Shown: piece after piece, positions 6,888 through 29,145 of the stretch
Layout of the letters: each line of letters starts with the position of its first letter
Numbering within the stretch: the first letter of the stretch is position 1
NCBI GenBank assembly: GCA_016703425.1
Contig: JADJCA010000011.1
Span: 58,050 to 122,049 of the forward strand
Length of the DNA: 64,000 nt
Direction of reading: 5' to 3'
Source of the DNA: Myxococcales bacterium
Lineage (GTDB): Bacteria; Myxococcota_A; Polyangia; Polyangiales; Polyangiaceae
Notes under the pieces: model-generated
Told to the model about the DNA's origin: nothing
The model's database searches: none
What the model saw: only the letters and a program-made list of their open reading frames with translations
Position numbers and translations under genes: made by a program

Positions 6888-7367
6888 ATGGTCAACCCCC
6901 AGATGGTGATGTACGAGGAGGAGTTCAATCAGATCCAGGCGGTCGTCGACCGACTGGTTCGCGACGCGAACGCCAAGGTCGTCTTCATCGTCGACAAGAA
7001 TGGGCAACTCATCGCTGCTGGCGGTGACATCGATCACGTGGACACCACGAGCCTCGCGTCACTGACGGCAGGCAACGTGGCGGCAACGGGAGGCATGGCG
7101 AAGCTCCTGAAGGAGAACGAGTTCGCCACCCAGTTCCACGAGGGCGAGAAGGCCAACATCCACATCCAGCTCGTCGGCAACCGGGTCATCCTCGTCGTCA
7201 TCTTCGACTCCCGCTCGAGCTTGGGCCTGGTCCGGCTCCGCGTGAAGAAGTCCAGCGAGGAGCTCAACCGAATCTTCGAGGAGCTGCTCAAGAAGGCCCA
7301 AGAACCCGCCGATTCTCCCTTCGCGGAGATCAGCGACGAGGACATCGACAACCTCTTCAGCGACTGA
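6888..7367 (+). CDS. mglB: MglB, Roadblock/LC7-domain GTPase-activating protein of MglA
   Basis: 159 aa Roadblock/LC7 fold sequence with an acidic C-terminal tail, immediately upstream of mglA. GGAGG RBS 7 nt upstream of the ATG. Confidence 0.9.
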   Translation: MVNPQMVMYEEEFNQIQAVVDRLVRDANAKVVFIVDKNGQLIAAGGDIDHVDTTSLASLTAGNVAATGGMAKLLKENEFATQFHEGEKANIHIQLVGNRVILVVIFDSRSSLGLVRLRVKKSSEELNRIFEELLKKAQEPADSPFAEISDEDIDNLFSD

Positions 7368-7483
7368 TCCAAGCCCGCCGGTTCGGCCTCCACCGCGAAA
7401 GCGAGGAGGCTTAGTGGGCCGGTGCGCTGGGCAAGCTTTTTGGAGGTCCAGGCGGGAGCCGGTTAGACTGGGGAACGAATGGA

Positions 7484-8077
7484 ATGAGTTTCATCAACTA
7501 CATGGCCAGGGAGATCAACTGCAAGTTGGTCTACTACGGGCCCGGTCTTTGCGGAAAGACCACCAATCTCCAGTACATCTACGAACGCACCAATCCGGAT
7601 GCGAAGGGGAAGATGATCAGCCTCGCGACGGAAACGGAGCGAACGCTGTTCTTCGACTTCCTGCCGCTGTCGCTCGGTGAAATCCGCGGGTTCAAGACGC
7701 GCTTTCACCTCTACACGGTGCCCGGGCAAGTCTTCTACGACGCCTCGCGGAAGCTGATCCTGAAGGGCGTCGACGGCGTCGTCTTCGTCGCCGACTCCCA
7801 AGTCGAGCGCACCGAGGCAAACCTCGAGTCGGTCGAGAACTTGCGCACGAACCTCGCGGAGCAGGGCTACTCGCTCGACAAGATTCCGTACTGCGTGCAG
7901 TACAACAAGCGCGACCTCCCGAACGCCGTGACCGTCGAAGAGCTCCGCCAGATGCTGAACACGACCAACGTGCCCGACTTCGAGGCCGTTGCGCGCACCG
8001 GCGTAGGCGTCTTCGACACGCTCAAGGCCATCGCGAAGCTCGTCCTCACGGAGCTCAAAAAGGGCGGCGGCGGCTGA
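7484..8077 (+). CDS. mglA: MglA, Ras-like small GTPase controlling motility polarity
   Basis: 197 aa, near-identical over long stretches to M. xanthus MglA from memory ([97 protein letters not shown]). Confidence 0.97.
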
Positions 8078-8112
8078 GGCTGCTTGCGATAGGGCTTCGA
8101 AGCCAAAACGAC

Positions 8113-8150
8113 GAAGAGCCGGCTCCGCGAGGGACCGGCTCTTTTCGTTT
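8113..8150 (+). terminator. rho-independent terminator after mglA (possibly bidirectional)
   Basis: gaagagccgg-(12 nt loop)-ccggctcttt stem followed by tttcgtttgtctg, 35 nt after the mglA stop. Confidence 0.55.
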
Positions 8151-8197
8151 GTCTGCTCGGCCCTCGACGTCGCGCGAGGAGCGCGGACTGGAGCGCT

Positions 8198-8320
8198 CTA
8201 GCTCTTCCAGGCGAACAGGCGCGCACGGCGAGCCTTGTTCTTCGCCTTCTCCTTGGCGCGGAAGCGCTTGGTCTTGGAGCGGTTCGTCTTCCGGGGCTTC
8301 TTCGAGAGCATGAGGAACAT
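8198..8320 (-). CDS. small highly basic protein (about 40 aa, MFLMLSKKPRKTNRSKTKRFRAKEKAKNKARRARLFAWKS), possibly ribosomal-protein-like
   Basis: Not in the track (<60 aa). GC3 about 37/39. GAAGGA RBS 7 nt upstream of ATG 8320 (alternative ATG 8311). Lys/Arg-rich, resembling C-terminal tails of small ribosomal proteins. Confidence 0.45.
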   Translation of the reverse strand: MFLMLSKKPRKTNRSKTKRFRAKEKAKNKARRARLFAWKS

Positions 8321-8456
8321 GGCGCGTCCTTCTGATTGCGGCTCCGAGGAGCGCGGTGCGTGGAGGTTACTCGAGCGGCCCCGGACGGGGCCCTAAAAAG
8401 CGGGGGCGAACTATTACCGGAGCCTCGCTTTTTGTGCAACTGTGGCCGCTCAATCG

Positions 8457-8819
8457 ATGAACGTCAGGCTCGTCCACGAGTTCCGCTTCGAATCCGCCCA
8501 CTACCTCCCCAAGGTTCCGCCGGGGCACAAGTGCATGCGGCTTCATGGCCATTCCTTCAAAGTTGAGCTGTCGGTCGACGGCCCCGTGAACCCGGAGACC
8601 GGCTGGTTTCTCGACTTTGGCGAGCTCTACAAGCTCTGGAGCCCGCTCCACGACGTGCTCGACCACAACTACTTGAACGACGTTCCCGGCCTGGAGAACC
8701 CGACGAGCGAGAACCTCGCCAAGTGGATTTGGGACAAGCTCTTGCCGAGTCTGCCGTCGCTCGCCCAGGTCACCGTCTTCGAGACGTGCGACGCGCGGTG
8801 CGAGTACCGCGGAGGCTGA
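8457..8819 (+). CDS. queD: 6-carboxy-5,6,7,8-tetrahydropterin synthase (QueD/PTPS family)
   Basis: CMRLHGHSF motif (C-x3-HGH zinc and catalytic site) and a 120-aa PTPS fold. GTG 8442 is an alternative start. Confidence 0.85.
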   Translation: MNVRLVHEFRFESAHYLPKVPPGHKCMRLHGHSFKVELSVDGPVNPETGWFLDFGELYKLWSPLHDVLDHNYLNDVPGLENPTSENLAKWIWDKLLPSLPSLAQVTVFETCDARCEYRGG

Positions 8820-8822
8820 GCC

Positions 8823-9119
8823 GTGGGAAAAACGCTGGTTTGTCGCTGCGAGGACGTGACGCTTCACGAGCTCGAAGAGGCCATCGCGCGCGGCCACGAC
8901 GATCTCGAGTCCCTCAAGCGCTACACGGGTTTCGGGACCGGCTGGTGCCAGGGCAAGTCCTGCGTCGCTCTGTGCGCTGGGCTCCTCGCAGCGCGCGGTG
9001 GCTCCGCTGGCCTGCCCATCACGCCGAGGCCGCCGTTCCATCCGGTGTGCCTCGCGGATCTCGCAGGCCTCGCAGCCGTGGCCGACGACGACGCCACCAA
9101 GGGTCGCGAGCCGGTTTAG
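8823..9119 (+). CDS. BFD-like (2Fe-2S)-binding domain protein
   Basis: CRCEDVT...GTGWCQGKSC cysteine pattern of bacterioferritin-associated ferredoxin-like domains. GGAGG RBS before the GTG. Confidence 0.7.
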   Translation: MGKTLVCRCEDVTLHELEEAIARGHDDLESLKRYTGFGTGWCQGKSCVALCAGLLAARGGSAGLPITPRPPFHPVCLADLAGLAAVADDDATKGREPV

Positions 9120-9279
9120 CCGCTCGCCCCCCCCCGGCTCGCTGGCCTGAACGGATCGTCAGCCCCGGGTACGTCAGTTCGTGGACGCGGGGTCCCAGAT
9201 TTCCATACGCTACGGGTTCTGCGGCAGTGGGCGCCGCGACAACCGTTCGCCGGCGGCGAAGAGGAAGAACCTAGGGGCG

Positions 9280-12200
9280 ATGGCACGCGGCATCGGAGCT
9301 CGTCCGGAACGACGCGAGAAGGTCTTGATCGTGGTGGGCAACGTGACCCACGCGATGGACCTTACGCTCGCCTTCGAGACCGCGGGCTTCGTGGTCACGA
9401 GCTGCGGCACCGTCGGCGCCGGGTGCGAAGCCGTCTCCGAGAATCGCTTCGATGTCCTCGTGATGGAGCACGAGCTCCCCGACGGCTACAGCGCGCTCTT
9501 GTTGCGCCTCGTGCGCGCGATGCCGGGAACGGCGAAGCTGCCCATCATCGCGCTCTGCCGCGAGGACGAGCTCAAGGGCAGCTCCGTCGGCGTATCGCTG
9601 TCGCCGATCGCATTTCTCGAGCCTTCGCTCTCGAGTGGTGACGTCGTCGAGGCCGCTGAGCGCTTGCTGCGACCGAGACCGGCGCAGCCGGTTATCGTCC
9701 CGAAGCGCGGCACGACAGCGCCGCAAGCCCGCCCCAGTCTGCCGCCCTTGGCGCGAAGTCCCGCGCCCGCACCGGTACCCTCGATGCCGCCGGCCTCGGC
9801 CGCGGGCCCTTCGTCGGTGCGCGCGCAGCAGCAAGTCGCATCGGAGCGACCGGCCAAGGGCGCCAACAAGGCCGCGCGGATCCTGTGCGTCGACGACAGC
9901 GCGACGTACCGGTACTCGCTGAAGAAGCTCCTCACGGCGGAAGGTTACGACGTGCTCATGGCGTCGTCCGGCGAGGACGCGCTCGAGCGCCTGGGCCGCG
10001 AGCTCGTCGATTGCGTCTTGCTCGACCGCATGATGCCCGGGCTCGGTGGTCTCGAGACCTGCAAGATCATCAAGCAGACACCCGAGTGGCGAAACGTCCC
10101 CGTCGTCATGCTGACGGCGACGGAGAAGCGGGAAGCCATCATCGAGGGCCTGAACGCGGGCGCCGACGACTACATCGCGAAGTCCAGCGACGCGGAGGTC
10201 CTTCGCGGTCGCGTGCGCGCGCAGGTGCGGCGTCGTCACTTCGAAGACGAGAACCGCGCGATTCGCGAGGAGCTGCACAAGAAGGACATCGAGACCGCGC
10301 GCGAGCAGGCCGCCAACCGGGCCAAGAGCGTCTTCCTCGCCGTCATGAGCCACGAGATCCGCACGCCGATGAACAGCATCATCGGCATGACAGAACTCGT
10401 CTTGAAGACCGACCTCTCGGACGAACAGCGAGACCTTCTGAGCTCGGTCATGACGTCGGCTGAGTCCTTGCTCTACCTGCTCAACGACATCCTCGATTTC
10501 TCGAAGATCGAGGCGGGCAAGCTCGAGCTCGATCCCATCGACTATCGCCTGCGCTACGCCCTCGGCGATGTCATGAACGCGCTGGCGATCCAGGCTTCGA
10601 CGAAGGGCCTCGAGCTCGGCGCCCACGTGGCCCCCAACGTCCCCGACGGCCTCATCGGCGATCCGGGGCGCCTCCGGCAGATCATCGTCAACCTCATCGG
10701 CAACGCCATCAAGTTCACCGACAAGGGCGAAGTCGTTGTCTCGGTCGTCGTCGAGGAGCAGCGTCAAGATTCGGTGCTCCTCCATTTTGCCGTACGCGAT
10801 ACCGGCATCGGCATCGACCCGATGAAGCAGAAGGTCATCTTCCAGCCCTTCGAACAGGCCGACGGAACCACGACGCGGCGCTACGGCGGAACAGGCCTCG
10901 GTCTCGCCATTTCGGCGAAGCTCGTCGAGATGATGCAGGGCCGCATCTGGGTCGAGAGCACGCCCACCAAGGCGAGCACCTTCCACTTCACGGCGCACTT
11001 TGGCCTCCAGGCCAACACCGGCGTCGGTGATGCGCCATCCCTCGCGGAGCGGGTCCGCGGCACGCGCGTCCTCGTCGTCGACGACAGCGCCACGCAACGC
11101 ACCATCCTCCAGGACATGTTGACGCAGTTTGCGTCGCGCGTCTTTGTCGTCGAAGACGGCGCCACGGCGCTCACGCACATGGAGCGTGCGTTGTCGGAGG
11201 GCGAGCCCTTCGAGATTGTGCTCATCGACAGCGACATGCCGGGCATGTCAGGCATCGAGCTCACCGAGCAGATCCGGATTCGGCCAGCCCACGCGCGCAC
11301 ATCGCTCATCCTCCTCAACCAGTCAGGCATGCGCGGTGACGCCTCGAAGTGGCGCGAGCTCGGCATCGCTTCGTCGCTGCGAAAGCCGGTGAAACACTCG
11401 GACCTGCTCGACGCGATCCTCCTCGCGCTCGACGCGAACGTACGAACAGCGCCGCGGGCGCACCCCACGGCAGCGCCCTCGACCTCGTCTCAGCCCCCGA
11501 GCTTGCCGGCCGCGGCGGCGGCCCCGAAGCCGTCGACGCCACCGCGGCTCACCCGATCGCTGCGGCTCCTCTTGGCCGAAGACAACGCCGTCAACCGCAA
11601 GTTCGCGACGCTGCTCCTCGAGAAGATGGGCCACCGGCTAACGGTCGCCGTCAACGGTCGCGAGGCCGTCGAGATGATGAAGGCCCAGAGCTTCGACGTC
11701 ATCTTGATGGACGTGCAGATGCCCGAGATGGACGGCCTCGAGGCTACCGGCGCCATCCGTGCCCTGGAGAAGACGACGGGCGATCATATTCCCATCATCG
11801 CCATGACCGCAGAGGCGCTGAAGGGCGACCGCGAGCGTTGCCTCGACGCCGGCTGCGACGACTACCTCACCAAGCCCATTCGGTCCGAGGAGCTCGCCGG
11901 GGCCCTTGAGCGGTGGGGCAAGGGACGCGGCGAGTCGCTGGCGGACGGACCCGAGTCCGCCACGCCAGCCTCGGTGCCGACGAAGAGTCATGGCGGCGTG
12001 CCAGCGATCAAGGGCCTGCCGCCCCCGCGCCTCCCGTCACTCCGGCCGGCGAGCTTCACGCCGGCGCCGCCGCCGTCAGCGCCCTCCTTGGGGCATCAGG
12101 CACCGCCGTCGGTGCAGCCGCGCACCTCCCCCGTGAGCGCATCGGCGGCCCCGCGTCCGGCGACTCCGGCGCCGCCGCACGTGTCGCCACGCAGCGCTCC

Positions 12201-12630
12201 CCAACCCGTGCCTCCCGCGCCAGCGTCCTCGCAGTCGCTGCCCCCGGTTGTACGGACCTCCCACGACGAGCCTCGCTCCTCGAAGCCGCAGCCGCCGCGC
12301 CCCGGGCCGCCACCACCTCCGGTGCCCAGCGCGCCGAGGCTCGGTCCGCCGCCGCTACCGGCGGCGGCGCGCAAGGCCGAGCCGCCCAAGGTTTGCGGCC
12401 CCCAGACCGCCGGCGCCGCCGGCTCCGGCCCGACCGCAAGCGCCGCGGCCCGCAGCGCCCGAGCCGACCGTCGAGTCGACGCTTCACGACTACAAGATCG
12501 CCGACACACCCCCTCCCCCTCCCCAAACGCCGCCCGCGCCCGCGCCAGCGCCAGCGCCGGAGGTCGTGGACTACAGCAAGCCCGCGTTCATTCTCCACGA
12601 AGCGTTGACGCGCGCCGCCGGCGACGCTGA
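9280..12630 (+). CDS. hybrid sensor histidine kinase: pseudo-receiver, Pro-rich linker, REC, coiled coil, HisKA, HATPase_c, REC, REC, long Pro/Ala-rich linker. Frame-1 tail after about 12400 looks non-coding.
   Basis: H-box [19 protein letters not shown] plus N/G-box (HATPase). Three canonical receivers with DD...D...K. The N-terminal receiver-like domain has Glu at the phospho-Asp position. The C-terminal frame-1 stretch (about 12400-12630) has low GC3, while frame +1 is coding there. Confidence 0.75.
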
Positions 12631-12919
12631 CCTCTTGAAGGAGGCCATTGGCATTCTCCTCGAAGATGCGCCGCTACAGCTTCGCACGCTGCGCGACGCC
12701 TACGGCGCGCACGACCTGCAGACCGTGCAGCGCCTCGCCCACGGCCTCCAGGGCGCCGTGGCGAACCTCGGCGCCAGCTCCATGGCCGCTGGCCTTCGCG
12801 ATCTCTCACACGCGGCCCGCGACAAGCGTGAGGACGCCATCGACCCGCTGCTCGATCGCGCACACCGCGACTGGACCGCTCTTGAACGAGAGCTTCGCAC
12901 CTGGGTGGCGAGTCCATGA
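12566..12919 (+). CDS. Hpt (histidine phosphotransfer) domain, either the true C-terminus of the hybrid HK via a +1 frame change near 12380-12440, or a stand-alone Hpt protein from an internal GTG
   Basis: Frame-2 ORF 12248-12919 is coding (high GC3) from about 12420. The Pro-rich linker continues in this frame and ends in an Hpt-like four-helix region ([34 protein letters not shown]). The GGAGG before GTG 12566 is only 2 nt away, a poor RBS, which favours the frameshift reading. Confidence 0.5.
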
Positions 12920-13860
12920 AGGTGCTTGTCGTCGAGGACGACGTCACCACACGCCTCCTGCTCAGCGGCACGCTGCGGAAGTGGGGCTACGAGGTGACGA
13001 CGTGCGCCGACGGCGAAGACGCTTGGGAGGAGGTGAAGAAGCGAGAGACTCGCCTCGTCATCACCGACTGGGAGATGCCTCGCCTCGACGGCGCAGGACT
13101 CTGCAAACGGATTCGTACGCAGCTCGGCTCGACCTACGTCTACGTGCTTCTTTTGACGAACTACAAAGACGCCGATCACATCGTGCAAGGGCTGAGCGCC
13201 GGCGCCGACGATTTCATCTCCAAGCCCTTCAATCCGCTCGAACTGCAAGCGCGGATGGCGGTCGGTCAGCGCATCCTGCTCTTGCAGGATGACTTGGTGG
13301 AGAAGCACCGCGAGCTCGAACGCCTCAATCAACAACTGGCGCGCATCGCGGCGACCGACGCGCTCACGCAACTCGGCAACCGCCGAAGCTTCGATGAAGC
13401 GCTCGCGCGAGCCCACTCGCTCGCGCTTCGTCACGGCCGCGCCTACGGCGTCCTGATGGCCGACCTCGATCACTTCAAGAGCATCAACGATCGCTTCGGC
13501 CACGCCATCGGCGACAAGGTCCTCGCAGAAGTGTCGGCCGCCTTTCGCAACGCCACGCGGAGCGAAGACGAGCTCTTTCGCTACGGTGGCGAGGAGATCG
13601 TCATCCTCACGCGGGAGCAGACGACGGCGGGCCTCACCTCCTTATGCGATCGGCTGACGACGGCGGCCGCGGCCGTGAGGATCACGGCGGCGGACCACGT
13701 GCCGGTCGCGATCACGGTGAGCGTGGGCGCTGCGCTCTACGACGGCCGAGAGCGCGTAGAAGGCGTCGCGCTGGTGGGCCGCGCCGACGACGCGCTCTAT
13801 CAAGCCAAACACGCGGGGCGAAACCGCTTCGTCCTCTGGGACGAGACGCCCGCGACTTAG
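12916..13860 (+). CDS. response regulator with receiver and GGDEF domains (PleD-like diguanylate cyclase)
   Basis: REC (VLVVEDD..D..MP..DG..KPF) followed by GGDEF with an RYGGEEI active-site motif. Its ATG overlaps the Hpt stop (ATGA at 12916-12919). Confidence 0.85.
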   Translation: MKVLVVEDDVTTRLLLSGTLRKWGYEVTTCADGEDAWEEVKKRETRLVITDWEMPRLDGAGLCKRIRTQLGSTYVYVLLLTNYKDADHIVQGLSAGADDFISKPFNPLELQARMAVGQRILLLQDDLVEKHRELERLNQQLARIAATDALTQLGNRRSFDEALARAHSLALRHGRAYGVLMADLDHFKSINDRFGHAIGDKVLAEVSAAFRNATRSEDELFRYGGEEIVILTREQTTAGLTSLCDRLTTAAAAVRITAADHVPVAITVSVGAALYDGRERVEGVALVGRADDALYQAKHAGRNRFVLWDETPAT

Positions 13861-13916
13861 ATTGCCGTTTGGAATCCGCCTCCGGCCGGCGGCGCCCGCG
13901 CGAGGCGCGTTTCGCC

Positions 13917-15161: not shown

Positions 15162-15220
15162 GCCTCGCTCCTCCGGCCTGGCAGGCGGCACCCCGCCCGC
15201 GCCATTTCCGCCTTGCTGAC

Positions 15221-16718: not shown

Positions 16719-17309
16719 TTATCTCTCTTTTCCCTTCTGGCGTGCTCCGGAGAGAATCGCGGCCGAGGCGCTAAGCTCGCTCGTCGTCCAAAGACGACTG
16801 GGGTCGAGGACCAAGCCGACGGCAGACTGAGTTCCCGGCCCTGCTCGATCGCCGAGCTGGGAGGACGGGAAGCCGTGGCTTAGCGCTTGGGGCCGAATAC
16901 GGAACACACCAGGGGGCAGCGGAATCGTCGCACCGAGCGGAGCTACGAACAAGCATTCTCCGGTGCCGACAGCCATGGGCACCTCTGAGCCGAGGTGGGG
17001 TACACGGAGGAGAACCCAGGCGATTTGCGGGATATCCAGCTCCAGCAGCGCGCCGAGCTGCCACGACGCGTAACGTTGACCAGCGACCTCAAGGAGGCCC
17101 GGAGACAGCTCTTCTGCATCAGCCTCGGCCGGAACGATGAGCGTCTGCGTTTGGATCGGCAAAACGAGGCGATCAATCCACTGGGCGGGCAGCGCGCCGA
17201 CAAAGTCCCCACACTGGAGGAAGACGCACAGCTCAGCCTTATCCGCGTCGGGTTGGGCGCCGCCCCAAGTCGAGAGGCTTGCGCCACCGCTGGAGGTCGA
17301 CGCCGTCAT
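16719..17309 (-). CDS. CheW-like coupling protein (divergent)
   Basis: About 190 aa, CheW-like core by position and weak motif similarity. ATG overlaps the cheA stop (ATGA). Confidence 0.55.
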   Translation of the reverse strand: MTASTSSGGASLSTWGGAQPDADKAELCVFLQCGDFVGALPAQWIDRLVLPIQTQTLIVPAEADAEELSPGLLEVAGQRYASWQLGALLELDIPQIAWVLLRVPHLGSEVPMAVGTGECLFVAPLGATIPLPPGVFRIRPQALSHGFPSSQLGDRAGPGTQSAVGLVLDPSRLWTTSELSASAAILSGARQKGKER

Positions 17310-20300: not shown

Positions 20301-22318
20301 TTGAGGAATTGCTCGTCGACGTCGGTGCCCGATTCGAGGACCTCCTCCATGCGCTTCTGGAGGCTCTCGGCGATCTTGCTGACTTCCTTCAGGCCGACCG
20401 TCGCGGCCGCGCCCTTGAGCGTGTGATAGATGCGCTCGACGTGGTCGGCGCTGGCCACGTTGGTCGGGTCTGCGAGGAGCGCTTGCAAGTGCCCCTGGAG
20501 CGCGACGACGAGCTCGCGGGCTTCCTCTTGGAAGATCGCCTGAAGCTCCTTGTCGATCTCTGCCGACTCTTCGCCGCTCGGCGACTCCTCGGCGAAGGAG
20601 AACTCCGCGCCTTCCTCGCCGCTCGGGCTGTCACCTGACATCGGCGGCGGCGAAAGCGTGATGGGCTTGAGGTCGACCTTGCGAAGGAGGCTGTTGGACT
20701 CGAGGGCGAAGGCCGCCAGCGTGTCTTCCCCGGCATCGAGGCGCCCGTCGGCGACGTCCTTCATCATCTTCGAGCAATCGGCGGCGGCGCTCGCGTATTG
20801 CGGGAGGTCGTTCTTCTGCGCGAGGACGTTGAGCTCGCCAAACATGCGCTCCAGCTTGCGCGCCGCCGAAAGGTCCGTGGCATCGACCGAGAGCGCGCTC
20901 ACGCACTCCTGCACGCCGTAGAGGATCCCTTTGGCTTGCTCCAAGAATTCGCGATGCTGCACGGCGTGAATCGGCTCCGGCCCCGTCGCGCGCGACGGCG
21001 GCGGCCCCGGCTCTTCTTCGGCGAACGAGAACTCTTCGCCGCGGCTCGTGGCGACGGCGATCTCCGGCAGGTTCACCTGACGCAAGATTCGGTTCGTGTC
21101 GCGGGCAACTTGCTCGAGGAACCCGTGTGTCACGGGCGTCGTGTGCTCGACGACCCCCATCATGCGCGCCTGGAGCTCGGAGGCGGCTTCGCTCACGTTG
21201 CTGAGACCGGCAAACGAGGCGCTCCCCTTGAGGGTGTGAAAAATGCGCTCGACGCTCTTCGACGACGACTCGTCCTTGGGGTTCTCGAGCAACTTCTGCA
21301 GGTAGCCCTGCAGCGGCACCAACAGGTCGCGAGCCTCGTCGTGGAACATCGTGTCGAGCTCGCCCTCCGGGACGACCTCGAGCTCTTCGCTCGGGAGGTC
21401 GGTCACTTCTTCGGCGGGCGCTGCCACGTACATGACGCCGAGGCGCGGCGCGCCGGCCATGTGGAGCATGCGCTCGAGGTCGCGGATCTGCTGTTCGATG
21501 AACGCCGGCGTGATGCTCGTCGAACCGATGATGACACCCTCGAAGTTGCGGCGAAGCTGCTCCGAGAGCTTGTGAACCTCAGGGAAGCCGGCGGCGCCAG
21601 CGCCACCCTTGATGCCGTGGAGGATGCGCTCGATGTGACCCGCGGCGACCATTTTGTCGGCATCATCGATGAACGCTTGCACGTGGCGAGCGAGCGCTTC
21701 GCCGGACTCGCGGACCTCTTCACGGAAGATGACCTGAAGCTCTTCGTCGAAGACGGGCGCCTGCGACGGCGGGGCGCTGACGTCGTTCGGGTCGACGGTC
21801 GAGGCGGGGGCCGACGCGGCGAGGCTCGCGCGAACCTCGGCGTCGTAGGCGGGCCCTTCGACCTTCTCGGCGAACGGTGCGCCGACGACGTCGGCGAGCT
21901 TGTCGCGAAACGCGAGGAGGAGCCACTCGGCCTCGTCGCTGTCGTGCTTCAGCTCGAGGTCGAGCATGGCGCGCATCTCGGTGGCGCCTTCCGCGCAATG
22001 TTGCGCGATGCGCCGCGCCTCCTTCGCGTGAGCCTCGATGGCGCGGACCTCTTCAAGGCCCTTGCCGGCCAGATGCTCGAGCATCCGGGCGCTCTCGGCC
22101 AGCGAGTTCGCCTGAACGAGGCTCGAGGTGCCGCTGACGGCATGCGCGAAGTCGCCGACCTTCTCAAAGAGCGGCGCGCCGTTGATGTCCTTCAGCGACG
22201 TCTGGTCGAGCGACGGGGAGGCGAGAAGCGCTCGTGCCGCTTCTTCGATTCGACCCAGGAAGTTCGTGATGTCCGTCGTGAACGTCTCGCGGACATCGTC
22301 GATTGAGAATCCTGACAT
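17306..22318 (-). CDS. ChpA-like multi-Hpt CheA histidine kinase with a C-terminal receiver (5 Hpt, dimerisation, HATPase, CheW-like, REC)
   Basis: 1670 aa. Five Hpt boxes (LHGIKGGAG, FHTLKGSASFAG, YHTLKGAAATVG, FHRLKGSALVV, THTLKGAVNTIG). CheA ATPase N, G1 and G2 boxes (HLVRNAVVHGIE, RDDGNGLD, GRGVGG). CheW-like domain. C-terminal REC (RVLFVDDS...DLIFTDLEMPRMHGYDL...KPF). Confidence 0.9.
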   Translation of the reverse strand: MSGFSIDDVRETFTTDITNFLGRIEEAARALLASPSLDQTSLKDINGAPLFEKVGDFAHAVSGTSSLVQANSLAESARMLEHLAGKGLEEVRAIEAHAKEARRIAQHCAEGATEMRAMLDLELKHDSDEAEWLLLAFRDKLADVVGAPFAEKVEGPAYDAEVRASLAASAPASTVDPNDVSAPPSQAPVFDEELQVIFREEVRESGEALARHVQAFIDDADKMVAAGHIERILHGIKGGAGAAGFPEVHKLSEQLRRNFEGVIIGSTSITPAFIEQQIRDLERMLHMAGAPRLGVMYVAAPAEEVTDLPSEELEVVPEGELDTMFHDEARDLLVPLQGYLQKLLENPKDESSSKSVERIFHTLKGSASFAGLSNVSEAASELQARMMGVVEHTTPVTHGFLEQVARDTNRILRQVNLPEIAVATSRGEEFSFAEEEPGPPPSRATGPEPIHAVQHREFLEQAKGILYGVQECVSALSVDATDLSAARKLERMFGELNVLAQKNDLPQYASAAADCSKMMKDVADGRLDAGEDTLAAFALESNSLLRKVDLKPITLSPPPMSGDSPSGEEGAEFSFAEESPSGEESAEIDKELQAIFQEEARELVVALQGHLQALLADPTNVASADHVERIYHTLKGAAATVGLKEVSKIAESLQKRMEEVLESGTDVDEQFLKNLLGDTRRLLKLANLPELDVAKSPKEPASAAEPPSEVGDAKKFFMEEAKELCERAGQYLDELAKAADPRAREVRGELGKLFHRLKGSALVVAEDAIATEAARLQSLASADKTSAAVLQRGLARVTQLLQSERAEEPSFSSAAAKKPAKAPRVKEAVVRERVQLPAEPDLVDAFNQECSELLDQLDRAILALEETNQPKAAIETLMRLTHTLKGAVNTIGLGPTGAILHRVETFLEGLIEATILPSMKAVATFLLEVQQDVRRNLRQAADGYVETSIARVESRIGNVLAGSKAAYEPVSHTGGSSVSIINVDTGGGSGDAESLAPGAPADAADRRFIRVSTERLDALMNLAGELVVSRSRLMSRIDVLKQLQLELGRSRRRLMDTVESFREEHEFTYRRPGEMHAAYQQTVAQLANRPAEGAATALAKLTSEDQMGAFSDAELDRYDDVNVLARSLAEMSNDFNEMYGQLYRELSAFAADSEAHGSIVTGIQSEVTRARMVPLEFLFQRLRLPVRDAAAREGKEVRVVTSGEDVNIDKTIADALFGPMLHLVRNAVVHGIEAPNARQATGKKETGTLTLAARQESGQIVLEVRDDGNGLDLAALHAKGVQMGVIPAETSVNDQVVKDLVFAAGLSTKATVGNVAGRGVGGNVVRRAVDRLNGSIRVDTMPGKGTAFLVTLPLTLAITKALLVSSRGRSYAIPLYFAQHILDAEEGVIVESAGIRRVKLDETYVSVLTMDELFGVTDRSSAEKRGPVIVLRVGDQRLMLQVDAVIGQEEIVVKSLGDLLTGHPVLAGVTIRGTGELSLILDIPGVVEAHAGRALSGGGPRFQPTTTSLERPKKATQLRMPAVQRKVRVLFVDDSLSVRKIAEKELTNLGTDVTTAVDGLDAMSKLREGHYDLIFTDLEMPRMHGYDLIRELRFLPAYQDLPIIVVSSRSGQKHQDQARALGCTDYLTKPFNARQLEGALEKYGPKKKPVGAQGAGDDSQSHSQDSGDSQ

Positions 22319-22388
22319 ACCAGCCCCTCACGCTCGGCCAGGCCGAGAAAAACCGGGAAGCAAAAAGTGTCGAAAACCGTGGGCGGCC

Positions 22389-24665
22389 TCAGGCCACCTT
22401 GAACTGACGGATGTTCTGCGTGATTTGCTCGGTGAGCGAGATGAGCTCGCCGACCGTGGCCACGGTTCCGTCAGCGCCCTTCTGCGTCTGCTGGGCGATG
22501 GCGGTGACCTCTTCCATCGTGCGCACCATGGTCTGCGTGCCCTCGACCTGCGCCTTCGCGACGGTAGCGATGTGAGCGACGAGGCCGGCCGACTCGGTGG
22601 ACACCTGGCGAATCTTGCCAAGCGACACGCCGGCTTCGGCGACCAGCTGCGACTCCTGCTCAACGACCTGCGTCTGCCGCTCGATGGCTTCGGCGGTTTC
22701 CTTCGTCTCGGCGTGGATGGCCTTGACGAGCTTGTCGATTTCCTTGGTGGCGGCGGCCGTTCGTTCGGCGAGCTTGCGCACCTCTTCGGCAACGACGTGG
22801 AAGCCGCGGCCGTGTTCGCCGGCGAGCGCGGCTTCGATGGCGGCGTTCAGCGCGAGGAGGTTGGTCTTCTCGCTGATGCGGCTGATGGTGGCGACGATGC
22901 CCGTGATCTCGAGGGACCGATCGCCGAGAATCTTCATGCGCTTGGCACCGGCCTGAACGCTTGCGCGAAGCTCGTTCATCGTCGAGATGACGTTCTCGAC
23001 GCGCTCGGCGCCTTCGATGGCTGACGCCTCGGTGCGCTGTGCGGCGGTCGCCGCCGTGAGGGCGTCCTGGCTGACGCGAGAGTTCTCTTCGCTCATCTGC
23101 ATGACGAGCTGGCGAGCGGTGAGGATGTCCTTCGCTTGGTTGGTGGCGCCGTTGGCCATGCCCTTCGCGAGGCTCGAGATCTCGACGACGGCGCGGTTGG
23201 AACGCTCCAGCTGTTGCTGGATGCGACCGATAAGGTTCTGCATGCTCTCGAGGAGGTTGTTGAAGCCGTCGGCCACGTTACCGAGGGCTCCTTCCGTCAC
23301 GCGGGCGCGGACCGTGAGGTTTCCGTCGGCGGCGTCCGAGACGACCTGCAGCAAGTCGAAGATGTTCTCTTGGAGCTGGCGGTTCTCGTCTTCAACGCGG
23401 TTCTTGAGCGTACGAGCTTCGACGAGGGCGTCGTTGATCTGGCCGTATTGCGTGCCGATCTGACCGAGCTCGTCTTGCGCGTCGAGGCGGAGTTGCTCTT
23501 CCATGGTGCCGGCGATCATGCGGCCCGTCGCGGAGCCGAGGACGGCGATGGAGCGCTGAACCGAGAGGAAGAAGCCTACGAACAAGTACGCGAGCGCGAG
23601 GGCCGCGAAGACGGCGATGCCGAGGGCGAGGTTTCGGTCGAAGGTATAGCCGTCGACGCGGTCTTCGATGAGGGCGTCGAGCTGGGGACCGATGCGGCGC
23701 CAGAGCTCAACGGTCTGCAGCGCGTTCTCAAGCGTCGCCGTGACGATGGGGCGGAGCGCGTCCTGGTTCGGCTTTTCTTTCGCCGTGAGGAACTTGGTGC
23801 GGACCATCTCGGCGTGCTGGTTGAGCTTGTCGAGGGACTTCTCGGCGAGCTTCAACGTCTGCGCGACGTTTTGACCGCGCTTCTTGGCGGCTTCGCGGAA
23901 GCCGGCAAAGTTGGTCTTGTCGAGCTCCGTCGTTTGATTGAGGAACTGCTTGTAGATACCGGCGAGTTCGACGTTTCGTTCCGCTTCGGCCTGCTCGTCG
24001 GGCTGCGGCCTCATGCCGAGCGTCGCCGAGCGCGCGATGCTGTCGACGAGCGACGGCATCTTGCGGAGGTAGGCGTCCATCAAGAAGTAGCTCTCGAGCT
24101 CTTGGTCGAGGACGAGGTTGGAGTTCGAGCCGGCTTGGTTGAGTACCAGGTCGATCATCAAAGAGGCGATGTCGGCGTGGTACTTGTCGGCCTCGTCGGC
24201 CGTGGCGAGCTTCTGCTTCTGGAGCCCCTCCCAGAGGGTCTTCGCCTGCTTCCACTTCTTCGTGGTGCGAAGCTCGTCGCCGACCTCGGCATCCTGCTCG
24301 TCGACCTTCTTGACGGCCTTGTTGGCCTCTTCCGTGGCCGCCGTGACGTCGCCGCTAAAGCCCGTCAAGCCCAACGCCACGCCGACCGAGGCCACGCGCC
24401 GTCGCTCGATTTGGTAGAGGAACTCGCGCGCCGGCTCGACCCAGCGAACGCCGCTTCGCTCCTTCTCGTTGAACTCGATGCGCTCTTGCGAGATGGCGTT
24501 CTGGAGGAAGAGGACGTAGCCGAGCGGGACCGCTACGAGCACGCCGATGATCAAGAATTTCCAGACGTATTTCAGTCTGTTCATCAAGGCCATGGAAGGC
24601 TGAAAGAGGAACGAGACCATCCCCCACACCTGTCCGAACCCGCTCGGCGTCCCGCCAGCATTCAT
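22389..24665 (-). CDS. methyl-accepting chemotaxis protein, PilJ-like (TM1, about 290-aa periplasmic region, TM2, HAMP, MCP signalling domain)
   Basis: Highly conserved MCP signalling hairpin ([36 protein letters not shown]). Two TM segments flank a large periplasmic domain. Strong AGGAGAAG RBS before ATG 24665. Confidence 0.85.
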
Positions 24666-24820
24666 GGTCGTCTTCTCCTAAAACTCGAAACTCTCAAATC
24701 GCACCGGCAGCGCGGGAAGCGCGTGGCTGAGTGGCCGCTCCGCCGGTGAAAAACTCTTTGTCGCCCCGCCAGAACCCCCGGAGGTCTCTGGCCCCATCCC
24801 CTAAGCCGCTATCTTCCTCG

Positions 24821-25438
24821 CTACTGATATTTCAGTTGCTCCAGTCGCTGCAAAAGAGCGGCTGTGTCGAGCACCGTGACGAAGAGGCCTCCACGGTTGT
24901 CGGCCTCCAAGAATCCCTGGACGAGCGGGTTGTCGCCGCCGGCTTTCGGCCGGCTGAGGACGCCCGGTCCGATCTCGAGGACGATCTCCATCCGGTCGAT
25001 GAGGACGCCCGCCATGAGGTTGCTCGCTCGAATCACGAGGACCGGGTACGGCTTTCCGTCACCGACCGTGATTTCCGAGCGTTTGCTGGCAGGGATCTCG
25101 AGAATTTCAGCCAGGTCGATCAGCGCCAGCGGTGTTCCGCGGAAGTTGAACAGGCCGAGCATGGCCGACTTGGACAGCGGCACGGGAGCCAATTGGTCGA
25201 CTGTCACCAGCTCGCCAACGAGGCCGATGTCGAGGGCGAAGCAGTCGCCGCAGAGCCAGAACGCGCACACGCGCTGGACCCCGCCGCCCTTGTTGGCAGC
25301 GCCTTGTGATCCCCCCGACCCGCCGGACCCCTTGCCGCTGCTCTGACCGCTGCCGGAACGGCCGGAGGAGCCCGAGCCGCTTCCGCCTTTCGAGGAGCCG
25401 CGCGAGCGGGAGGAACCTTTGGAAGACTCAGTTGCCAT
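24821..25438 (-). CDS. CheW-like protein with a 50-aa Gly/Ser-rich N-terminal extension
   Basis: CheW core (LVTVDQLAPVPLS...GLFNFRGTPLALIDLAEIL...VLVIRASNLMAGVLIDRMEIV). GAAGGGA RBS. Confidence 0.8.
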   Translation of the reverse strand: MATESSKGSSRSRGSSKGGSGSGSSGRSGSGQSSGKGSGGSGGSQGAANKGGGVQRVCAFWLCGDCFALDIGLVGELVTVDQLAPVPLSKSAMLGLFNFRGTPLALIDLAEILEIPASKRSEITVGDGKPYPVLVIRASNLMAGVLIDRMEIVLEIGPGVLSRPKAGGDNPLVQGFLEADNRGGLFVTVLDTAALLQRLEQLKYQ

Positions 25439-25457
25439 GGTTTCCCTTCAGCTGACT

Positions 25458-25820
25458 TCAGCCGACGTAACGCTTGATGATTGCTTGGAGCGTGTCGGGG
25501 GTGAACGGCTTCGCGACGTGGTCGTCGGCGCCTTGTTTCTGGCCCCAGAAGCGGTCGCTGTCGCCGCCCTTGGACGTCACGAGGACGACCGGAATCTTGG
25601 AGGTGTCGGGGTCGGTCTTGAGCTTGCGGCAGGCGTGAAAGCCGTTCATCGACGGCATCACGACGTCGAGGAAGATGAGCTGCGGCTTCACCTCTTTGGC
25701 CCGGGCGAGCGCCTCGCTGCCGTCGGTGGCGTATTCAGGCTTGTGACCGGACGACGTCACGACGCGGCCGATGAGCTCGCGGTCGGTCTGTACGTCGTCA
25801 ACGATGAGAATGGTTCCCAT
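25458..25820 (-). CDS. single-domain CheY-like response regulator (PilG/PilH-like)
   Basis: 120 aa REC: ILIVDD, D at LIFLDVVMPSMNG, T, KPF. Confidence 0.85.
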   Translation of the reverse strand: MGTILIVDDVQTDRELIGRVVTSSGHKPEYATDGSEALARAKEVKPQLIFLDVVMPSMNGFHACRKLKTDPDTSKIPVVLVTSKGGDSDRFWGQKQGADDHVAKPFTPDTLQAIIKRYVG

Positions 25821-25848
25821 GGAGTCCTCGGAATTGGGCAGGCGGCGT

Positions 25849-27624
25849 TCAGGCGACGAGCAAGCGCTCTAGGTCAACATACGTAATGGGCTTTGTCAGT
25901 ACGGAATCAAAACCGGCGGCCGAGAGCTCGTCGACCTTCTCGCGAGAAGGCGTGTCGAGCACCGCGACGACCGCCAGATGGGAGAGATCGTCGGCCTTTC
26001 GGACCTGGGCCACGGCGCGTACCGCAGCGTCGCCGGCGGCGTCCGCGTTGAGGATGACCATCCGCGGCCTCTCCCTGAGGATCGCGGCGAAGATGTCTTT
26101 GTCGGAGTCGAAGGCCACGAGCGACAGGGGCTCGGCGCGGTTCTGAAGCAGCTTGGTGAGCGGCGCCTGGAACCCTTCGACGTCGGGCTCGAGGATCATG
26201 ACGGCGCTGGGTCGCTTGGTCTCGGCGGCGACCGCTGCGACGTGCCGCTCGCGGATGAGCCCCACGTGGAGGAGCCTCGCGACGATGTGGGCGGCCTCGC
26301 GCGCCGGTAGGCCGCTGCGGTTCGTCAGCGTCTGAACGCTGTTGCCACCACCCACGAGGCTGAGAATGCGGCGCTCCTCGGCGGAGAGCTCGAAGTCGCG
26401 AAGGCGGCGGCTGAAGTTCTCGGCGCGCTCGAAGACCGCCTCGGTCTTGGGCAGACGCGCCTCGACGGTCGCGCGGCCAGAAGGCCGACGGAACAGCTCG
26501 AGCTCGAGCTGGTCGACCGAGATGCGAAGGCCGTAGGCGTCGACGTAAGAAGGGTGCGTCGGCCGCTCGCGCCAGAAAAAGCGCACCGAGCTCGCCTCGA
26601 TGATGTCGAGGAGCGAGCGCTTTCCCTGCCTTTGAAGCAACGGCGCGAGATCGGTCGTCGGCAGGTAGCCGCGCTCGGCGAGGGTCACGAAGAACGGCTT
26701 GCCGCTCGAGCGCTGGTCGGCTTCTGCGCGCTCGCGCACGTCGGCGGCGAGGGCCGGCAGCGCGACCTTCGCGTCGCGGCAGTAGTCGATGGGATCGTGG
26801 CTCGTGGCGAGGAGGACTTCGCCGCGGCGAAGGTACGCGACGACCTTGCGGCTGCCGGCGGCGAGCCAAAGCTCGCCCGTTTGACCCGAGGCACGGATCA
26901 TCTTCACGATGTCCGTGGGGGACCAGCCGGTGGCCTTGCCGGAGAGCGACCCCTCGCCCTCTTCGACCGGCTCCGCGGGGCCAGCGCCGCCGAGCACTTC
27001 TTTGAAGACCGGCACGAGGGCGTCGAGCACTTGTCCGACGAGCTCGGGCGTCAAAAACTTTCGCGCAAAGTAGGGCGCCGGTTGGTTGGCGCCGAGCTGC
27101 GCCATCCAGTCGGGGATGCGCGCAAACTGCGGCCGCAGCGACGCGAAGAGCGACTTCGCCGCCGTCTCCTTCTGGCGAAAGGAGAAGAGCGAGACGCTGG
27201 CCGGCGCCGGCGGACGCGACGGCCTCAGCGACGCCGTCGCCGCTTGCGCCTTCTTGTCGAGCACCGCTTGCACACGCGTGACGATGTCGTCGGGCGAAAA
27301 CGGCTTCGAGACGTAGTCGACCTGCGCGCGCATCCCCTTGAAGAGCTCGCGGACGTTCTCGTCCTTCGCCGTCATCAAGATGATCGGTACGTTGGCCGTG
27401 CGCGCATCCTGACTAAGCCGCTGCGCGACATCGATGCCACGCATGTCGGGGAGGACGAAGTCGAGGAGAATGAGCTCGGGGATGCCGTGGTGATGCGTCG
27501 CCTTGAGCAGGCCCTCATGGCCCGTCGTGGCGTAGTCGATGGTGGCATCGATGTTCTTGAGCGCCAGGCCGACGGCCTTGCGAACGGTGAGGCTGTCGTC
27601 GATGACGAGGAGACGCGACGTCAT
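25849..27624 (-). CDS. multidomain response regulator: receiver, PATAN/DUF4388-like, middle domain, C-terminal pseudo-receiver
   Basis: Trimmed to ATG 27624, which overlaps the upstream stop (ATGA). N-terminal REC (LLVIDDSLTV...ELILLDFVLPDMRG...SKPF). DUF4388-like segment (GQTGELWLAAGSRKVVAYLRRGEVLLATSHD). C-terminal REC-like fold without a clear acid pocket. Confidence 0.6.
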   Translation of the reverse strand: MTSRLLVIDDSLTVRKAVGLALKNIDATIDYATTGHEGLLKATHHHGIPELILLDFVLPDMRGIDVAQRLSQDARTANVPIILMTAKDENVRELFKGMRAQVDYVSKPFSPDDIVTRVQAVLDKKAQAATASLRPSRPPAPASVSLFSFRQKETAAKSLFASLRPQFARIPDWMAQLGANQPAPYFARKFLTPELVGQVLDALVPVFKEVLGGAGPAEPVEEGEGSLSGKATGWSPTDIVKMIRASGQTGELWLAAGSRKVVAYLRRGEVLLATSHDPIDYCRDAKVALPALAADVRERAEADQRSSGKPFFVTLAERGYLPTTDLAPLLQRQGKRSLLDIIEASSVRFFWRERPTHPSYVDAYGLRISVDQLELELFRRPSGRATVEARLPKTEAVFERAENFSRRLRDFELSAEERRILSLVGGGNSVQTLTNRSGLPAREAAHIVARLLHVGLIRERHVAAVAAETKRPSAVMILEPDVEGFQAPLTKLLQNRAEPLSLVAFDSDKDIFAAILRERPRMVILNADAAGDAAVRAVAQVRKADDLSHLAVVAVLDTPSREKVDELSAAGFDSVLTKPITYVDLERLLVA

Positions 27625-28676
27625 CAGCGCACCTCCGCGACAATGCCAGAGACCTTGCGCGGGCCTTGGCGAAGGCGCCCGGTAAGCAAATCGAGGACCG
27701 CCGGCCCACCTTCGGCGACGGCCTTGGCGATATCGTCTTCCGCGCCCGACGCGCCCGTCAGCGCGACGACAACGTCGCCGCTCGCGGCTCCAAAACGCAT
27801 CATGAGGGAACCCGTCTTTCCGAAAGCGTTGGAGAGGTTGTACGCGTTGGGCAGTCGCATCGGCGAAAGGATGCGAAGCGGCACTTCGGGCCCCGCCGGC
27901 CAATAGACGATCCAGTCTTCACCGTCGGGCGCGAGGTGCAGCGCGGCGTAGCTGCCGCCGAGCATGTCACGGAGCTTGCGCTCCTTCTCGTCGTCGGGCT
28001 CTTCGCGGCGCATGGCGTCGGCCACGCGGGCCGCTTCCGCGTCGACGAGCAACGGTGCGCCCGGGTCAACGCGAAGGAGAGCCGTGAGCCCCTCGGTCGT
28101 GCCTTGCACAACGAGCGGCAACGAATCGCTGGGGGTGTCACCGCCACACGTCATGGCGCCGACCCAACCGTTGGCGTGTTGACGCTCGCTCGTGCGGACG
28201 GGACCGTGGCGGGCGTCGGCGGGCCCGGCACCGAGGAGGCTCCCGGTGGCGCTCACAGTGTTGGCGGTGAGGGCTCGAATGCGCGCGGCGATGCGCCCCG
28301 CAGACAGCGGCGGAGAGAGCAGCGTCACGCGGCCGCTCTGAATCGTCACCGTCGGTCGCACGAGCGGCTCTTCGCAGAGGAGCAAGAGCGAGATCGTCGG
28401 CATGCTGCGCGTCATGAGCTCGACGATGTCGTCGGGCACGCGACGCTCACCAGCGGCGAGCCACGCGACGAGCAGCGCCGGCGGCGGAGCACCGGTGGCC
28501 GCGAGCCACGAGACGAGCTGCGTGGCCGGTGCAGCGGTTGCGTCGCCAGTCCAAAGGAAACGGCGGACGCCCGCTGCTTCACACGCGCCGACGATGTCGC
28601 CGAGCAACGACTCGGGCATGCGGTGCGATGCCACCACGACGGTGGACTTGCTCTCTTCGGGCGATTGATTGGTCAC
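27624..28676 (-). CDS. hypothetical protein in che operon
   Basis: High GC3. GTG 28676 lies 2 nt after the CheW stop. Alternative ATG 28619. No recognised motifs. Confidence 0.4.
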   Translation of the reverse strand: MTNQSPEESKSTVVVASHRMPESLLGDIVGACEAAGVRRFLWTGDATAAPATQLVSWLAATGAPPPALLVAWLAAGERRVPDDIVELMTRSMPTISLLLLCEEPLVRPTVTIQSGRVTLLSPPLSAGRIAARIRALTANTVSATGSLLGAGPADARHGPVRTSERQHANGWVGAMTCGGDTPSDSLPLVVQGTTEGLTALLRVDPGAPLLVDAEAARVADAMRREEPDDEKERKLRDMLGGSYAALHLAPDGEDWIVYWPAGPEVPLRILSPMRLPNAYNLSNAFGKTGSLMMRFGAASGDVVVALTGASGAEDDIAKAVAEGGPAVLDLLTGRLRQGPRKVSGIVAEVR

Positions 28677-28677
28677 G

Positions 28678-29145
28678 TCAGACCCCCACGAAATCGCTTG
28701 AACCGACGAGGTCCTTGAGGAGCGTCGGAACGTCGAGCCAACCGATGGAACGGTTGTCGATGGTTCGAGCCGCCGAGATCCACGGCGGCAACTTGTCACT
28801 GCCCGGTTGGTCGCGCTTCGCGCGCACGGTCGCTTGAACCATTCCAACGACGCTCAAGACTTCGAGCGCCCATCCGATGTCGGACTCGTCGGCGCTGACG
28901 ACGATGCCCTCTGTCTCCTTGCGACGTGGAGCGTCGGGAGCGCGATCACCGATGAGCGCAACGGAGATGATGATGCGCCCCTGATAGACGGCGAGACCAC
29001 CGACCCAACGACGCGCCAACTGCAGCGGCGTCGTTTCGTACTGGATGATTTGATAGACGGAGTCGACGGGAACAGCGACGCGAGCTCTCCCGATGGAGAA
29101 CTCGAGACCCGTCTGGATCGGCGCCTCGGTCGACGTGTCGCTCAT
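28678..29145 (-). CDS. CheW-like coupling protein (first gene of che operon)
   Basis: 155 aa CheW fold (EFSIGRARVAVPVDSVYQIIQ...GLAVYQGRIIISVAL). AAGGAG about 18 nt upstream. Confidence 0.7.
   Translation of the reverse strand: MSDTSTEAPIQTGLEFSIGRARVAVPVDSVYQIIQYETTPLQLARRWVGGLAVYQGRIIISVALIGDRAPDAPRRKETEGIVVSADESDIGWALEVLSVVGMVQATVRAKRDQPGSDKLPPWISAARTIDNRSIGWLDVPTLLKDLVGSSDFVGV

Follow-up and report, generated by a model that had tools for sequence, protein, structure and literature searches.

Chemosensory (che) systems that steer type IV pili have been described in Pseudomonas aeruginosa, as the Pil-Chp system (pilGHIJK-chpABC), and in cyanobacteria, as the Tax/Pix/Hmp systems (e.g., pixGHIJL of Synechocystis). 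To our knowledge, no sensory system other than Frz has been established as feeding the MglA/MglB polarity switch of Myxococcus xanthus, and how pilus-driven movement is steered in myxobacteria outside Myxococcus is largely unknown. The subject here is a che operon that lies close to the polarity genes mglB and mglA (mglBA) in a 64,000-nt stretch of DNA from a Myxococcales bacterium (positions 58,050 to 122,049 of contig JADJCA010000011.1; this whole stretch is called the window, and coordinates within it are given in Table 1). With somewhat better than even confidence, the che cluster is taken to be one copy of an operon conserved among Polyangia and of the type-IV-pilus (Tfp) kind by its architecture, and its adjacency to mglBA to be a lineage-specific insertion or deletion (indel). 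The most interesting element of the operon is a previously unreported Ras-fold pseudo-GTPase domain at the C-terminus of one of its two regulators that combine a receiver (REC) with a PATAN (DUF4388) domain.

The Pil-Chp genes and the window operon share the order response regulator, CheY, CheW, methyl-accepting chemotaxis protein (MCP), CheA, and CheW-like protein. They also share the build of CheA (many histidine phosphotransfer (Hpt) domains, a C-terminal receiver, and no P2 domain), an MCP hairpin with the length of Pseudomonas receptors that we take to be of the 40H class, and the possession of two response regulators, which in Pseudomonas are antagonistic in their effect on pilus polarity. 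In the window these are REC-PATAN-1 and CheY, encoded ahead of CheW-2, the MCP, and CheA in the pattern of pilG and pilH. An earlier note on this DNA had called the system T4P-type (Pil-Chp-like), and the architecture agrees in its gene order, multi-Hpt CheA with receiver, two regulators ahead of the core, and 40H-length MCP; the pilus-type label, drawn from sequence, is reasonable but unproven. Unlike Pil-Chp, the operon has no CheR (PilK) or CheB (ChpB), its first regulator carries a PATAN domain, its MCP sensor is not PilJ-type, and no pil genes lie nearby; it adds CheW-1, a 350-aa protein of no recognized family, a REC-PATAN protein with a G-domain-like (G-like) domain (REC-PATAN-2), and a Ser/Thr kinase. 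In a survey of 13,673 CheAs, about 93% of multi-Hpt kinases fall in the Tfp and alternative cellular functions (ACF) classes, and their combination with a receiver predominates in Tfp (PMC10782961). Tfp-class systems typically have two CheY-like regulators (PMC11181946).

The cyanobacterial Tfp-class systems likewise begin with a PATAN regulator and lack methylation enzymes (PMC11181946), and, as in the window, CheY, CheW, MCP, and a CheA with a receiver follow. Their PATAN is an output domain; in Synechocystis it binds PilB1/PilC and is sufficient as output, as described for PixG and PixE (bioRxiv 10.1101/2021.06.11.447907). Neither CheR nor CheB was found among the 10 operon genes or in the orthologous loci. 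In contrast to Tax/Pix, the domain order here is REC-PATAN instead of PATAN-REC, and the MCP carries a periplasmic helical sensor where Tax/Pix receptors have photoreceptor GAF domains. We know of no cyanobacterial counterpart of a second REC-PATAN protein with a Ras-fold domain and a kinase.

Likeness to M. xanthus (Frz-MglA/MglB-RomR and masABK) lies in a bona fide mglBA, a CheA-receiver fusion, and a Ser/Thr kinase near mglBA (MasK in M. xanthus). The window differs in that its che architecture is not Frz-like, its kinase belongs to the che operon and not to a masABK-like membrane complex, and the linkage to mglBA is not conserved. The two polarity genes, both reported in the earlier note, are real: they encode an MglA-type GTPase and an adjoining Roadblock/LC7 MglB, with mglB directly 5' of mglA across a 116-nt gap. 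Window MglA aligns with M. xanthus MglA (5ymx) along its full length at about 87% identity (196 aa, E = 3e-111) and keeps intact P-loop and NKRD motifs; for window MglB, identity is about 70% with the M. xanthus protein (6h5b) and 84-94% with other Polyangia MglB proteins.

Conservation of the operon and of its position was assessed by looking up 12 contigs and by a metagenome scan in which the REC-PATAN-2 C-terminal domain served as query (12 loci); a profile search of genome contigs with the full-length REC-PATAN-2 alignment, which settled on generic receiver patterns, returned unrelated response regulators alone. The operon itself is widely kept. Homologs of its proteins are labelled Polyangiaceae, Polyangia, or Kofleriaceae, and the same gene order is found in L091, L092, L093, L095, L096, L097, L100, L104, L105, L106, and the P0228 contig; the encoded proteins are about 45-55% identical across Polyangia contigs and 85-87% identical in closer relatives. 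Three of these loci, L091 (12789-15318), L104, and L105, have an extra CheW gene after the kinase, which in L091 is followed by a convergent gene for a CHASE3-PAS-GGDEF protein.

The proximity to mglBA is not kept. The distance between mglBA and the kinase gene that ends the operon is 5.8-7.0 kb in the window, and tblastn found no MglA or MglB in the seven che loci with 8.3-9.0 kb of sequence beyond that kinase. Conversely, no che genes occur within 10 kb of mglBA in 14 related contexts. Ten of the MglB contexts examined encode an 87%-identical MglB, with DUF3857/transglutaminase genes, then mglB and mglA, and recX next in all except one of the ten; no che, histidine kinase, or GGDEF gene lies within 10 kb, and the context of a 90%-identical MglB is similar. 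Closer to the window are L120 (MglB 94% identical), in which mglBA is followed by three inserted genes, a 39-aa ORF, and genes for PTPS, Fer2_BFD, GtrA, SDR, and COX15, and L122 (MglB 91% identical), with mglB, mglA, one small gene, Fer2_BFD, and COX15. By tblastx, L120 is collinear with the window at 6888-9044 and again at 34771-35508.

What L120 and L122 lack between Fer2_BFD and COX15 is a block of about 25.4 kb that in the window holds the hybrid histidine kinase, the REC-GGDEF protein, the che operon, Peripla_BP_6, Porin_O_P, and an FHA-GGDEF protein. Because both relatives keep the frame of mglBA-Fer2_BFD...COX15 without the block, the adjacency of mglBA and the operon is explained as a lineage-specific indel; it is restricted to a narrow lineage, in which a rearrangement produced it. 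PTPS and Fer2_BFD are conserved right-hand neighbours of mglBA and mark the left edge of the indel: both are collinear with L120 (73% and 88% amino acid identity, respectively), and Fer2_BFD is found downstream of mglBA in L122 too. On the right, the genes for Peripla_BP_6, Porin_O_P, and FHA-GGDEF (29386-34537) lie upstream of the che operon, and a closer relative (JGI 3300045391 contig) keeps che, Peripla_BP_6, porin, FHA-GGDEF, and COX15; in this clade these three genes travel with the operon. The linkage of the hybrid kinase and REC-GGDEF genes to the operon is not conserved among relatives, and in the near relative L096 a gene other than REC-GGDEF comes next to the kinase.

The adjacency being a lineage-specific indel, position is no evidence that the system feeds MglA/MglB. 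The earlier note had read the adjacency as a sign of such an input and had set a synteny comparison beforehand as a check; that comparison, with seven che loci lacking mglBA, 14 mglBA contexts lacking che, and L120 and L122 lacking the block, gave non-conservation, the outcome it had named as refuting. The note had called the proposed input undescribed. That mglA/mglB and PATAN genes occasionally share a neighbourhood, a looser association, is already on record (PMC4316618, citing Makarova 2006). The Ras-like pseudo-GTPase domain in the operon is unreported. In L122, 6-9 kb upstream of mglB (801-3999), there are genes for another REC-PATAN protein, of 411 aa, and for a REC protein of 620 aa; this REC-PATAN is a further instance of the published loose neighbourhood.

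Within the operon, the claim of a ChpA-like CheA with five Hpt domains and a C-terminal REC was borne out and extended. CheA has five Hpt domains with an HxxKG motif (residues 233, 361, 631, 755, and 881), at least one degenerate Hpt, and H-kinase_dim, HATPase, CheW, and C-terminal REC domains. The MCP has two transmembrane segments flanking a helical periplasmic domain of about 290 aa, a hairpin tip at E617, and a C-terminal arm of 141 aa, equal to 20 heptads. It aligns almost without gaps with the equal-length Pseudomonas receptors CtpM and PcaY and has about four more heptads than Tar and Tsr of Escherichia coli. Since CtpM and PcaY are, we assume, 40H receptors, the window MCP is assigned to 40H as well. 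The same protein had been called PilJ-like, a name that does not fit: its sensor has no PilJ domain (PF13675) among the matches listed at E <= 5.

The single-domain CheY, the two REC-PATAN proteins, and the terminal Ser/Thr kinase were all recovered by Pfam as the earlier note had proposed. For its three CheW-like proteins the result is mixed, with two clear by Pfam and the third, the 196-aa protein in the ChpC position, lacking any Pfam match of its own. Among orthologs of the latter, 2 of 11 match CheW at E = 2.7e-4, and hhalign of the family against the CheW alignment gives a weak full-length match (E = 0.024, probability 2%); from such sequence matches it is at best a divergent CheW. The 350-aa protein is 100% identical to the NCBI hypothetical protein IPG50_21045 [Myxococcales bacterium] and has orthologs in the equivalent position in L091, L092, and L093; it has no Pfam match (searched per member) and no match in a PDB profile search. 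An assignment made by eye, to a receiver-like domain plus a PP2C/SpoIIE-like phosphatase, was dropped, as the Pfam and PDB profile searches were empty. The acceptor Asp is canonical in the receivers of REC-PATAN-1 (LILLDFVLPDMRG), CheY, and CheA. Beyond the PATAN domain of REC-PATAN-1 (25849-26400), sub-threshold winged-helix matches were seen (HTH_47, E = 0.024; DUF742, E = 0.045), and a C-terminal region looks receiver-like by eye; all matches are below thresholds. DUF742 is presumably the family of CvnC, from the actinobacterial conservons, that partners MglA-like and Roadblock proteins.

The cluster, convergent to the hybrid kinase and REC-GGDEF genes, had been described as an 11-gene minus-strand operon from 29145 down to 13917 with ATGA/GTGA overlaps or gaps under 30 bp. 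The cluster exists, with 10 genes by the present count, and most junctions are tight: four are overlaps or gaps of 1-7 nt and two are gaps of 19 and 28 nt, while CheW-2 and the MCP are separated by 155 nt and the MCP and CheA by 70 nt (all other junctions are <=28 nt). The genes for CheA and the 196-aa protein overlap by ATGA, and the REC-PATAN-2 stop overlaps the GTG start of the kinase by GTGA. Between the cluster and the Peripla_BP_6 gene stands a strong terminator-like hairpin, which favours 29145 as the start of the che unit; a scan for sigma-70 promoters found no sites. Over 18 kb, the window matches contig CAXWNY010000014.1 (L001) of the metagenome-assembled genome GCA_964269505.1 at 99.1% identity. 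Relative to L001, a 1-nt deletion at 17349-17357 alters the CheA tail (1670 versus 1656 aa) and creates the ATGA overlap with the next gene.

The conserved C-terminus of REC-PATAN-2, about 200 residues, has no match to Pfam or PDB sequences; a PDB sequence-profile search with the domain gave chance matches alone (arginase, E = 0.2). AlphaFold2 models are confident for the full-length protein (pLDDT 88.9, 80 sequences) and gave pLDDT 77 and pTM 0.79 for the isolated domain. A Foldseek search is in agreement with a small-GTPase fold (E = 1e-4 to 3e-3, TM 0.4-0.5 for Arf, EngB, K-Ras, Gtr1, Rho, and Rab); closest in structure are Arf, Rho, Rab, Ras, and MglA, and the strand order is that of a G domain (six-strand topology). 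Vestiges of the G motifs remain at the P-loop (G342 and S344), at D387, which ends β3, and as 'VGN' at the NKxD site; the G1, G3, and G4 equivalents read ADLAAGVS, DVRNP, and VGNAAL.

In G-domain topology, vestigial P-loop, and 'VGN' G4 remnant, the C-terminal domain of REC-PATAN-2 resembles Ras-superfamily GTPases and eukaryotic pseudo-GTPases, of which the p190RhoGAP pseudo-GTPase domains are an example. It differs from Ras-superfamily GTPases in lacking the P-loop lysine, the DxxG glycine, and NKxD, in being fused C-terminal to REC-PATAN, and in being invisible to sequence profiles. The lysine, the glycine, and NKxD are absent from 80 of 80 orthologs, where the lysine position is V, T, I, or A; for this reason the domain is labelled pseudo-GTPase-like rather than GTPase, and it is probably a non-hydrolysing interaction module. 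The family is small, with 136 cluster representatives in a profile search of 1.84 billion, nearly all of them C-terminal in proteins of 470-540 aa or in kinase fusions of 865-959 aa.

The kinase gene, which in the window is translationally coupled to that for REC-PATAN-2, always follows it in relatives, and the two are fused in P0025, P0058, and P0075; by the Rosetta-stone argument from these fusions, the two proteins are expected to act together. In the REC-PATAN-2 receiver the acceptor residue is Glu69 (codon 16505-16507); at this site the 80 orthologs have E in 48 and D in 32. This alternation, as read from the alignment, points to recurrent changes between a phosphorylatable form and a phosphomimetic or inert one, and the window protein is not expected to take phosphate at the canonical site.

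Should the likeness to Pil-Chp and Tax extend to function, the ChpA-like CheA would be controlled by the transmembrane MCP of the 40H class, together with two or three adaptors of the CheW type, and would hand phosphate on via several Hpt domains. Candidate recipients are REC-PATAN-1 (PilG/PixG position), CheY (PilH/PixH position), and the receiver of CheA itself; REC-PATAN-1 and CheY may form an antagonistic pair, as in Pil-Chp and Tax1, and methylation-based adaptation would be absent, as in cyanobacterial Tax systems. By analogy to Synechocystis PixG and PixE, the PATAN of the phosphorylated regulator could act on PilB/PilC (extension motor/platform) and set the pilus site. REC-PATAN-2 and the Ser/Thr kinase would constitute a second, lineage-typical branch, probably a kinase-regulated scaffold or localisation module. 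In the distant REC-PATAN relatives P0091 and P0093-P0095, a fusion to a T2SSE_N (GspE/PilB N-terminal) domain is found, which is consistent with the proposed connection of PATAN with the pilus motor.

Several points weigh against a pilus-type operon whose place beside mglBA is an accident of one lineage. No pil-gene match was found among the ORFs scanned within the 64-kb window, both regulators reverse the domain order of the cyanobacterial PatA type, the MCP lacks a recognizable PilJ sensor, and every functional step is proposed by analogy; the contigs of the two closest operon relatives (85-87% identical) end just after the kinase, so that conservation of the mglBA-operon adjacency at the level of the genus is possible. 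An ACF class for the CheA core is possible too, since multi-Hpt CheAs with a receiver also occur in that class, and among the listed rows of the survey table the Polyangia CheAs are all ACF, the bacterial Tfp rows lying outside that listing (available part of PMC10782961). On that reading the system would control cyclic di-GMP, exopolysaccharide, or development together with the GGDEF proteins encoded nearby, much as Wsp or Dif do. The REC-GGDEF gene convergent to the operon, the FHA-GGDEF gene 4.4 kb upstream that a near relative has kept, and the CHASE3-PAS-GGDEF gene convergent to the operon in L091 all fit it, yet L092, L093, and L097 have no GGDEF neighbour within about 9 kb downstream of the kinase and the operon itself encodes no GGDEF or other enzymatic output. 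The order RR-CheY-CheW-MCP-CheA-CheW (RR, response regulator) and the PATAN regulators are hallmarks of the pilus type, and an ACF system of this kind is considered unlikely. Very improbable are a reversal system of the Frz type and ordinary flagellar chemotaxis: the host is a myxobacterium and the CheA-receiver fusion recalls FrzE, but Frz has a cytoplasmic MCP (FrzCD), methylation enzymes (FrzF/FrzG, i.e., CheR/CheB), and a dual receiver (FrzZ), whereas the window MCP, by Pfam scans and its sequence, is transmembrane with a large periplasmic domain, the cluster has no CheR/CheB or dual-receiver FrzZ-type gene, its CheA has five to six Hpt domains, and flagellar genes are absent.

That the system is a dedicated, Frz-independent input to MglA/MglB, in which the REC-PATAN or G-like proteins or the kinase might act on MglA, MglB, or RomR, is doubtful. 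The adjacency is present in all same-species contigs that reach far enough, PATAN proteins lie near mglA/mglB elsewhere (PMC4316618) and in L122, M. xanthus has, next to mglBA, the gene for a kinase that binds MglA, MasK (PMC3546991), and the Ras-fold domain of REC-PATAN-2 could engage Roadblock-type partners. Against this, the adjacency is not conserved, a 25-kb indel accounts for it, and the kinase travels with the che operon and not with mglBA. A functional link in trans between the operon and the polarity module is likewise rather improbable; the Ras-like domain in REC-PATAN-2 is a slight, independent pointer to it. A bolder form of that idea, for which we see little probability, is that the REC-PATAN-fused, kinase-paired pseudo-GTPase is an MglA mimic or adaptor that docks on MglB, MglC, RomR/RomX, or PilB, providing a Frz-independent link from pilus chemosensing to polarity.

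Under the preferred account of a Polyangia-conserved, pilus-type operon, adjacency to mglBA is unusable as functional evidence here, and the operon is an uncharacterised variant, conserved in Polyangia, in which PATAN regulators, a eukaryote-like kinase, and a cryptic pseudo-GTPase domain of Ras-like fold are joined to a pilus-type core. Should the G-like domain bind polarity proteins or the pilus motor, it would connect a chemosensory array with cell polarity in a way open to testing; if it is an interaction module of this sort, it would be one more example of a bacterial pseudo-GTPase.

Table 1. Features of the mglBA-che region, in window coordinates.
Feature	Coordinates	Strand	Length, evidence, or remark
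mglB (Roadblock/LC7 GTPase-activating protein)	6888-7367	+	159 aa; Pfam Robl_LC7 E = 6e-19
mglA (Ras-like polarity GTPase)	7484-8077	+	197 aa
Very basic small ORF (MFLMLSKKPRKTNRSKTKRFRAKEKAKNKARRARLFAWKS)	about 8198-8320	-	40 aa
PTPS	8442-8819	+	Pfam
Fer2_BFD	8823-9119	+	Pfam
Block of ~25.4 kb missing between Fer2_BFD and COX15 in L120 and L122	9181-34537		gene tables, tblastx
Hybrid histidine kinase (REC, HisKA, HATPase, RECs, Hpt)	9280-12936	+	Pfam on window ORF 9181-12630 and on intact L001 version
REC-GGDEF diguanylate cyclase	12916-13860	+	314 aa; Pfam; GGEEI active-site motif, RxxD I-site
Ser/Thr protein kinase, last operon gene	13917-15224	-	Pkinase E = 3e-48; GTG start
REC-PATAN-2 (receiver, PATAN, C-terminal G-like domain)	15221-16711	-	496 aa; Pfam
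Ras-like (small-GTPase fold) pseudo-GTPase domain	15224-15829	-	REC-PATAN-2 residues about 295-496
Divergent CheW-like protein (at best), ChpC position	16719-17309	-	196 aa
CheA	17306-22318	-	1670 aa; Pfam
MCP (transmembrane)	22389-24665	-	758 aa; Pfam MCPsignal
CheW-2	24821-25438	-	205 aa; Pfam CheW E = 6e-19
Single-domain CheY, canonical acceptor Asp	25458-25820	-	120 aa; Pfam
REC-PATAN-1 (canonical receiver, PATAN, C-terminal extension)	25849-27624	-	591 aa; Pfam, start model
Protein without detectable family	27624-28676	-	350 aa
CheW-1, first operon gene	28678-29145	-	155 aa; Pfam CheW E = 6e-14
Terminator-like hairpin	29289-29318	-	13 bp stem, T-rich tail; ends upstream Peripla_BP_6 gene
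COX15	34521-35534		Pfam

The hybrid histidine kinase with Hpt domain and the REC-GGDEF protein have the look of a phosphorelay of their own, with a diguanylate cyclase at its end. The earlier note placed the pair within 1.2 kb after mglBA; both genes are present, with three small genes (the basic ORF, PTPS, and Fer2_BFD) separating mglA from the kinase, and the kinase frame is broken in the window. In L001 the intact protein has 1218 aa and its stop overlaps the REC-GGDEF start. Relative to L001, the window has indels of +1, -1, and -5 nt at 12392, 12522, and 12525, by which the kinase ORF ends at 12630 and the Hpt domain falls in another frame (12248-12919). Either the gene is truly disrupted (pseudogenisation), or the assembly carries an error of the homopolymer type. 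The DNA, assigned to an uncultured member of Myxococcota (class Polyangia), has a G+C content of about 67%.

Scans of the region for tRNAs and Rfam families gave no match, including at the site of the very basic small ORF, which also has no Pfam annotation in precomputed gene tables. The sequence of this ORF (37-40 aa) is kept 1-3 kb downstream of mglBA in at least eight Polyangia loci, and it may encode a ribosome- or nucleic-acid-associated small protein. Further along the window lie a cluster of multihaem c-type cytochromes (35784-45404; NapC/NirT, c7/c3-type, and MtrC-like) and a phoU-pstA-pstC-pstS operon for phosphate transport (46522-51050), both unrelated to the che operon.

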